DNA of 8,242 nucleotides from a virus. Its lineage: Duplodnaviria > Heunggongvirae > Uroviricota > Caudoviricetes. A program made the translations under genes and the position numbers. Positions 7,848-8,242 of this stretch are shown here, one piece after another (within the stretch, counting starts at the first letter, position 1; each line of letters begins with the position of its first letter). The DNA lies in the IMG/VR virus record IMGVR_UViG_2698536379_000012; one strand, 5' to 3'. A model generated the notes under the pieces. The model did no database searches. It saw only the letters and a program-made list of their open reading frames with translations, and was not told the DNA's origin.

Positions 7848-8075
7848 TTATATGAACAGCCATCGCAGAGCATACTGTGTATCATTCTTTTTTATAGTCA
7901 ACTGACGGGCATATTTTATGTCTGCTGCCAGCTCCCGGCGGCAAGATTCAATGACCCACGCAGAAAAATTTTCTGAACCTTTCTGGTCAAGAGCGATGTT
8001 AATTTGTTCAATCATCTGGTTTGGAAATCGGATGTTGCGGGTTGTTGTTCTGCGGGTTCTGTTCTTCGTTGACAT
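7848..8075 (-). CDS. Putative small ribbon-helix-helix-like DNA-binding protein (75 aa), unknown function, in an AT-rich segment
   Basis: MSTKNRTRRTTTRNIRFPNQMIEQINIALDQKGSENFSAWVIESCRRELAADIKYARQ... has a basic N-terminus, a candidate beta-strand (RNIRFP) and two helices in an RHH-like pattern. It is the only ORF here with its own downstream terminator. RBS is weak and the fold assignment is by pattern only. Confidence 0.4.
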   Translation of the reverse strand: MSTKNRTRRTTTRNIRFPNQMIEQINIALDQKGSENFSAWVIESCRRELAADIKYARQLTIKKNDTQYALRWLFI

Positions 8076-8222
8076 GAGGTTGCCCCGTATTCAGTGTCGC
8101 TGATTTGTATTGTCTGAAGTTGTTTTTACGTTAAGTTGATGCGGATCAATTAATACGATACCTGCGTCATAATTGATTATTTGACGTGGTTTGATGGCGT
8201 AGATGCACGTTGTGACATGTAG

Positions 8223-8239
8223 ATGATAATTATTATCAT
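8223..8239. promoter_or_regulatory. Perfect 8-1-8 palindrome ATGATAAT-T-ATTATCAT matching the Fur-box 7-1-7 core (TGATAATnATTATCA); candidate Fur operator
   Basis: The two arms at 8223-8230 and 8232-8239 are exact reverse complements. The surrounding 19-mer matches the GATAATGATAATCATTATC consensus at about 15/19. A second, weaker ATAAT..ATTAT element lies at about 8168-8181. The target gene is unknown and may lie beyond the window. Confidence 0.35.
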
Positions 8240-8242
8240 TTT

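Follow-up and report, generated by a model that had tools for sequence, protein, structure and literature searches.

Fur sites within lambdoid prophages have been known in Escherichia coli K-12 since 2000 and 2007, at the prophage genes nohA and nohB. In the accessible parts of Chen et al. 2007 (PMC2189734), nohB is given as a 25.3-bit Fur cluster of four overlapping sites in 28 bp at coordinate 579824, third-ranked among the strong clusters shown in Table 4, and nohA as a 22.3-bit cluster at coordinate 1634624. The nohA site was picked by both the Fur model and the sigma-70 model of that study, and an oligonucleotide carrying it was gel-shifted by 150 nM Fur. The assayed nohA oligonucleotide has a C at the centre of the site; the T-centred allele at nohB is reported there as a predicted Fur site. 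According to the same source, an in vivo selection of Sau3A fragments that bind Fur had already yielded the nohA locus (Vassinova and Kozyrev 2000, cited in PMC2189734), and the nohA fragment titrates Fur when carried on a multicopy plasmid.

A further signal at nohA comes from FNR profiling. An FNR-antibody ChIP-seq summit at 1634625 lies on the nohA box, 1 bp from its centre (Myers et al. 2013, PMC3688515), and Table 4 of that paper holds ten FNR peaks without FNR-dependent expression, all of them upstream of operons known to be Fur-bound or Fur-repressed, a pattern that would also fit antibody cross-reaction with Fur. The Fur peaks listed for K-12 include none at nohA or nohD, and the prophage peaks that we checked in Fur ChIP-exo data from strain Sakai fall in tape-measure and P2-like genes, none at cos. 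We suspect that the multicopy nature of the cos region accounts for the missing cos peaks in both strains.

A second described case is strain CFT073, in which Gao et al. 2023 (PMC10164565) found a Fur ChIP-exo peak at 1424699–1424711 in iron-replete cells only. This interval sits on GTGATAATTATTCTC, directly before the cosQ of a prophage, and its upstream flank is unrelated to that of the locus studied here. Between Rz and cos, the CFT073 prophage also carries a TonB-family protein gene and iss (at 1423654–1423980 in CFT073, 38655–38981 in our locus L246), which places cargo related to iron some 700 bp upstream of the box that Fur occupies. Reviews of the lambda cos region name only cosQ, cosN, I2 and cosB as its subsites.

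We compared these systems with a palindrome close to the end of the window, by which we mean the whole 8,242-nucleotide stretch of DNA that was analysed. The window represents the late part of a lambdoid prophage and matches, at 99.9% identity from end to end, a prophage found in E. coli O55:H7 RM12579 and in relatives of that strain. Its genes comprise a Q-like antiterminator, an esterase, a holin, a lysozyme, an antirepressor-like gene and Rz; a ylcI-like gene comes next. In the intergenic DNA beyond, positions 8223–8239 read ATGATAATTATTATCAT, a perfect 8-1-8 inverted repeat (ATGATAAT-T-ATTATCAT) without strand. A sequence-only reading of the window had described it as a perfect inverted repeat matching the Fur 7-1-7 core, and this description is borne out. 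The core, TGATAATnATTATCA, is matched at 14/14 positions at 8224–8238 (centre 8231), the runner-up in the window reaching 11/14, and a search of the window for the 17-mer with up to three mismatches returned 8223–8239 as its single match, where 200 dinucleotide-preserving shuffles gave an expectation of 0.02. The classical Fur 19-mer, GATAATGATAATCATTATC, is matched at 15/19 positions at 8219–8237 and, in reverse orientation, at 16/19 at 8225–8243, 1 nt beyond the window. Both matches belong to an extended, likewise unstranded hexamer array, GTAGAT-GATAAT-T-ATTATC-ATTTT(g), which occupies 8219–8242, runs past the window end and is consistent with binding by several overlapping Fur dimers. The palindrome thus matches the Fur consensus, which may be written as the 7-1-7 unit, the 19-mer or an array of GATAAT hexamers. 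The plus-strand TATTAT that had been read at 8231–8236 is present as well, and Rfam holds no match at the palindrome site.

The window has three other notable features. Between the Q-like and esterase genes, positions 1923–2089 on the plus strand give a full-length match to the Rfam small RNA STnc100 (99.6 bits; gathering score 47). At about position 3411, four nucleotides (GGAC) of a GGACGGAC repeat are missing relative to O55:H7 RM12579, which splits a 645-residue SASA-family carbohydrate esterase into the overlapping open reading frames 2230–3447 and 3426–4163, a frameshifted gene. At about 121–182, a 31-nt tandem duplication (GCGCCGCCGTGACCTGGACAATATTCTGAAA, twice) lies inside a RusA-family gene and is absent from the RM12579 prophage.

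The palindrome has an exact counterpart in K-12. In the DLP12 prophage, upstream of nohD (formerly nohB), both the 17-mer and its flanks are identical; the copies in Qin, upstream of nohA, and in phage lambda have the C-centred allele and differ from the window copy at the centre base and at +8. After conversion from U00096.2 to U00096.3 by offsets that we take to be +777 for 579824 and +1976 for 1634624, the published nohB and nohA coordinates fall exactly on the palindrome centres, at position 1102 of our DLP12 locus (L004) and position 1601 of our Qin locus (L003), respectively. Judged by its sequence, the palindrome is a further copy of the Fur site known in K-12 at nohB and nohA and is in that respect already known; as a sequence feature it is ordinary. 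Fur very probably binds it, an expectation for the window's exact copy that draws on the binding found at the allelic site. Published work on the same or an allelic sequence thus supports well the part of the sequence-only reading that concerned Fur binding, and it is the proposed cargo target that fails.

That target, a Stx1-like iron-regulated cargo gene just past the window, was wrong. Extending the window through the near-identical O55:H7 prophages identified the neighbour as cos and the terminase genes. After ...ATCATTTT, prophages with 99.6–99.9% identity continue with gc, GGGTCCT (cosQ), ttccggcgatccgacaggttacg (a 23-nt spacer) and GGGCGGCGACCT (a lambda-type cohesive end). From the centre of the palindrome it is 14 bp to cosQ and 44 bp to the cosN nick, both of which lie just past the window. 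Records of mature phage genomes that share this right end terminate at the cosN cut, 32 nt beyond the last base of the window. Past cosN come cosB, with repeated CATGTCCGG-type motifs, and then a Phage_Nu1-family terminase small-subunit gene, which is about 230 bp away and starts about 239 nt past the palindrome centre. No toxin gene was found directly downstream of the palindrome in the near-identical O55:H7 prophages; a Fur box laid over a toxin or cargo promoter, as at stx1, is therefore not the arrangement here, where cos and the terminase gene follow.

The packaging region of these prophages has features of its own. Their cosB (4300–4440 in our locus L001, 9480–9600 in L249) contains three CATGTCCGG / CCGGACATG repeats, which are not lambda R sites, and the small terminase subunit paired with it has an N terminus unlike that of Nu1 (MATQTEVARHLSLTDRQL...). 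This suggests that the O55:H7-type prophage has another packaging specificity, yet the same cosQ, cosN and Fur box.

We gathered cosQ-N20-cosN sites from viral contigs and from genomes, taking a single genome for each species, and compared the DNA to the left of cosQ; GC-rich chance matches in the genome scan were filtered by spacer similarity and by I2-like sequence downstream. The box, TGATAATnATTATC with a free centre base, was present in 12 cos families whose upstream flanks are unrelated, among them several from Escherichia, three from Kluyvera, and others from Citrobacter, Buttiauxella, Trabulsiella and further sources. Its centre lies 13–14 bp from cosQ in 11 of the 12 families and 16 bp from it in the remaining one. 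Positions −7 to +6 are conserved in 10–12 of the 12 families, the centre being T in six and C in six; an A at −10 and TT at +8/+9 are also conserved across families, and the sequence beyond about −14 on the upstream side is random. Pairs of the 12 families have a mean identity of 0.88 over the 14 box positions, 0.68 over the cosQ-cosN spacer and 0.26 over the flank, and matches of 12/14 or better occur at a rate of 9e-5 per background window in 1.2 Mb of the same loci. Within the family that has the lambda/DLP12 flank (126 loci), no variation occurs at positions −10 to −1 and +1 to +5, the centre is T in 92, C in 33 and A in one, and nearby positions vary. Conserved arms around a free centre are the pattern to be expected of a palindrome that is bound by a dimer and kept by selection.

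A Buttiauxella metagenome-assembled genome (L093) carries two perfect copies of ATGATAATCATTATCAT in the 70 nt before cosQ, 23 nt apart, with the proximal copy at the usual distance from cosQ. The survey also returned exact lambda right-end/cos sequence at contig ends or on low-coverage contigs assigned to Oceanobacillus, Neobacillus, Shewanella, Leeuwenhoekiella and Raphidiopsis and on an Alicyclobacillus 'plasmid'; the lambda-cos contigs of unrelated organisms (L017, L023, L034, L067, L071, L078, L090, L100 and L114) probably reflect contamination of the assemblies with lambda DNA.

The same comparison bears on which protein would bind the box. It occurs together with at least three types of terminase small subunit, as distinguished by their N termini, and the genes upstream of it are many and varied, so whatever binds it should come from the host and be neither a neighbour's product nor terminase. 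The neighbour in the window, called an RHH gene in the sequence-only reading, is a minus-strand gene at 7848–8075 of the DUF3950 / YlcI-YnfO family (Pfam DUF3950, E=3e-17; NCBIfam YlcI_YnfO_N), for whose product a sequence search of the PDB found no solved relative. The palindrome lies 148 nt upstream of the start codon of this divergently oriented gene, in agreement with the roughly 150 bp given by the sequence-only reading, and small DNA-binding proteins often autoregulate through palindromes; on these grounds, it could be an operator of a phage-encoded regulator such as the DUF3950/YlcI protein that merely looks like a Fur box. The co-occurrence that autoregulation by DUF3950/YlcI would entail is not seen, as a ylcI-like open reading frame stands upstream in three of the 12 box-positive families (those with lambda/DLP12-type flanks and L216) and the other nine have unrelated open reading frames there. 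The palindrome is kept in cos regions that lack the DUF3950 gene, and its possible role as the minus-strand neighbour's operator, which the earlier reading had named as an outcome that would overturn its own proposal, does not apply. Moreover, the half-sites fit the Fur consensus at all specified positions, and binding of the allelic sites by Fur itself is established both in vitro and in vivo. Control by a phage-encoded regulator is, on this evidence, scarcely credible.

A second, weaker ATAAT..ATTAT element that had been proposed about 45 bp upstream of the palindrome does not hold up as a Fur site. At 8168–8181 it matches 7/14 positions of the 7-1-7 core, a background value below that of several random places in the window, and its half-sites are separated by 2 nt where the Fur core has 1. 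It belongs, as one arm, to a different and imperfect inverted repeat at 8145–8157 and 8165–8177 (ATCAATTAATACG / CGTCATAATTGAT; 85% complementary, with a 7-nt gap), 70–100 nt upstream of the ylcI-like start codon. This repeat is conserved in lambda and DLP12, is not Fur-like and could be a promoter or operator element of ylcI.

In lambda itself, the box reads ATGATAATCATTATCAC at 48451–48467, 5 bp from cosQ at 48473–48479, and the lambda reference annotation has no feature at 48451–48467. Across the families compared, conservation of the cos region of lambda-family phages begins, on its left side, with the box. It is missing from six other phage cos families that keep cosQ and cosN, and from both cos1 and cos2 of the phage-inducible chromosomal island (PICI) EcCICFT073, which are packaged by lambda and phi80. 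Because these six families and both island sites do without it, the box is dispensable, and an essential cos subsite it is not. At cos1 of EcCICFT073 (cos1 and cos2 lie in our locus L247, at about 15529 and on the minus strand), a GC hairpin with a T-run abuts cosQ where the phages have the Fur box, and a 144-residue gene downstream of the EcCICFT073 cos has weak helix-turn-helix matches only.

An accessory part in packaging has to be weighed against these absences. A typical Fur footprint spans about 30 bp and would reach cosQ from the box; Fur, or another protein bound there, could then modulate the action of terminase that ends packaging, or shield the cos of the prophage from cutting. The almost fixed distance between box centre and cosQ, 13–14 bp in nearly every family, would suit such a role, as would the position of the box as left boundary of the conserved cos block. 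Against it stand the boxless PICI sites cos1 and cos2, which lambda and phi80 package nonetheless, and the definition of cosQ, which the saturation mutagenesis of Wieczorek and Feiss in 2001 reportedly confined to 7 bp; cos reviews, too, list only the four named subsites. We regard a packaging element as improbable.

The best explanation, and in our judgement a probable one, is a Fur operator at the junction of cos and terminase that shuts off Q-independent transcription. Host Fur would be the binder and the palindrome a high-affinity operator. In iron-replete cells, Fe2+-Fur dimers would occupy the 7-1-7 core and the adjoining hexamers, and bound Fur would most likely stop Q-independent transcription that starts at or crosses the palindrome; one repressed direction would be rightward, through cos into the terminase and head operon. 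Iron starvation or loss of Fur would then relieve the repression. For direct transcriptional control of the cos/terminase junction by Fur, taken separately, we see the balance as even. The late genes of lambda are not known to be driven from any promoter but pR', which counts against transcription from this site.

A candidate promoter fits this arrangement. On the plus strand at 8212–8239, a putative sigma-70-like element combines a −35 hexamer GTGACA (8212–8217), a 16-nt spacer and a −10 hexamer TATCAT (8234–8239), a 10/12 match scored in the near-identical locus L001 that is not significant alone, as shuffles give 1.5 such sites. The Fur box covers its spacer and −10 hexamer, and transcription is predicted to start within cosQ, just past the window, and to proceed toward cosN, cosB and terminase. 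A sigma-70 promoter conserved across the families was not found; a good −35 hexamer occurs only in the lambda/DLP12-type flank.

Expression data from CFT073 fit repression of transcription around cos. In its fur mutant, transcripts were higher than in the wild type for C_RS07355, which encodes the terminase large subunit (+1.34 log2), C_RS07365 (+1.57) and C_RS07370 (+2.13), and also for the TU53 genes assigned to the same Fur peak, C_RS07340 (+2.33) and C_RS26755 (+2.95), on a scale on which fepA and entC are strongly positive (PMC10164565). C_RS07350, the gene for the CFT073 terminase small subunit, is absent from the significantly changed genes of the fur mutant. Derepression of the terminase operon is seen only in fur-mutant RNA-seq from this one strain. 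In K-12 fur mutants, nohD, nohA, ylcI and ynfO were unchanged (MG1655) or lower (W3110), at very low counts and alike with their neighbours. The direction in which Fur would act is inferred, as is any advantage to the phage.

The CFT073 derepression could also be indirect, through stress-driven induction of the prophage, as loss of fur is known to induce prophage indirectly in another enterobacterium, Yersinia ruckeri. Extended to the whole locus, this reasoning would have Fur bind without any phage role: the palindrome would be AT-rich DNA hitchhiking with cosQ, recombination joints happening to fall just to its left, and the expression changes would follow from stress. The dispensability of the box in six phage cos families and in two functional PICI cos sites speaks for such a passenger, as do the K-12 prophage genes that are not derepressed, and we found no published phenotype. 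Hitchhiking alone would leave unexplained why identity in the box (0.88) exceeds that of the adjacent cosQ-cosN spacer (0.68), with flanks at the random level (0.26), and why the sole freely varying base is the centre, which Fur does not read. The two perfect copies in one Buttiauxella prophage and the chance rate of 9e-5 per window likewise argue against it, and we consider a site without phage role unlikely.

Titration is another way in which Fur binding might matter. During lytic replication, hundreds of cos copies could act as a sponge for Fur and so derepress iron uptake by the host or phage cargo, such as stx1 in other prophages. Its support is the recovery of the nohA fragment through Fur titration on a multicopy plasmid, as reported in the accessible part of PMC2189734, and the one prophage with two perfect boxes. 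With thousands of Fur molecules in a cell, however, a single site per phage genome would be a weak sink, and the fixed position beside cosQ would go unexplained. A sponge is, in our estimate, very improbable.

Returning to the operator reading, the conservation invites a broader, tentative view, which we rate as rather unlikely: that selection maintains the Fur box as an accessory module of lambdoid cos, making it more than a chance passenger, and that through it host Fur ties iron status to Q-independent terminase expression or to cosQ access. Were this so, iron starvation would alter terminase levels, cutting of the prophage cos, or packaging. If Fur gates terminase transcription or access to cosQ, iron availability would act directly on late development or packaging in lambdoid phages, the Stx-converting ones included. 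The literature that we searched yielded no paper linking Fur to cos or terminase; in lambda, which has the box at 48451–48467, we found no description of such an iron link. Nor did the searchable literature yield a statement of the cos-adjacent conservation across lambdoid phages, of the presence of the box in lambda or of its absence from PICIs. In its wider context, the box marks a conserved left edge of cos in lambda and many relatives from several enterobacterial genera, and is missing from PICI cos sites.

Set against the described systems, the locus is closest to the K-12 nohB and nohA Fur clusters. The same element occupies the orthologous place there, and the DLP12 copy is identical over the 17-mer and its flanks; the window copy differs in that its prophage, of O55:H7 type, has another terminase small subunit and another cosB. 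In the accessible text of the K-12 study, the site is assigned to the promoter region of a cryptic prophage gene and its adjacency to cosQ goes unmentioned (PMC2189734). The CFT073 peak, P53, with its CFT073-unique regulon members, marks a homologous box that lies equally far from cosQ, again in a lambdoid prophage; Fur binds it in iron-replete cells only, and genes adjacent to it are derepressed in the fur mutant (PMC10164565). That allele is weaker (12/14) than the window copy, and neither the flank upstream of it nor its neighbouring genes are related to those of the window. With the Fur operator of the Stx1 promoter, the window box shares its placement in the late region of a lambdoid prophage, but what comes next is cos and the terminase genes and not stx or other cargo. 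Compared with lambda cos as it is defined by cosQ, cosN, I2 and cosB, the box lies outside the subsites, and cos sites without it are still packaged, yet it is physically contiguous with cos and co-conserved with it in most lambda-like phages.
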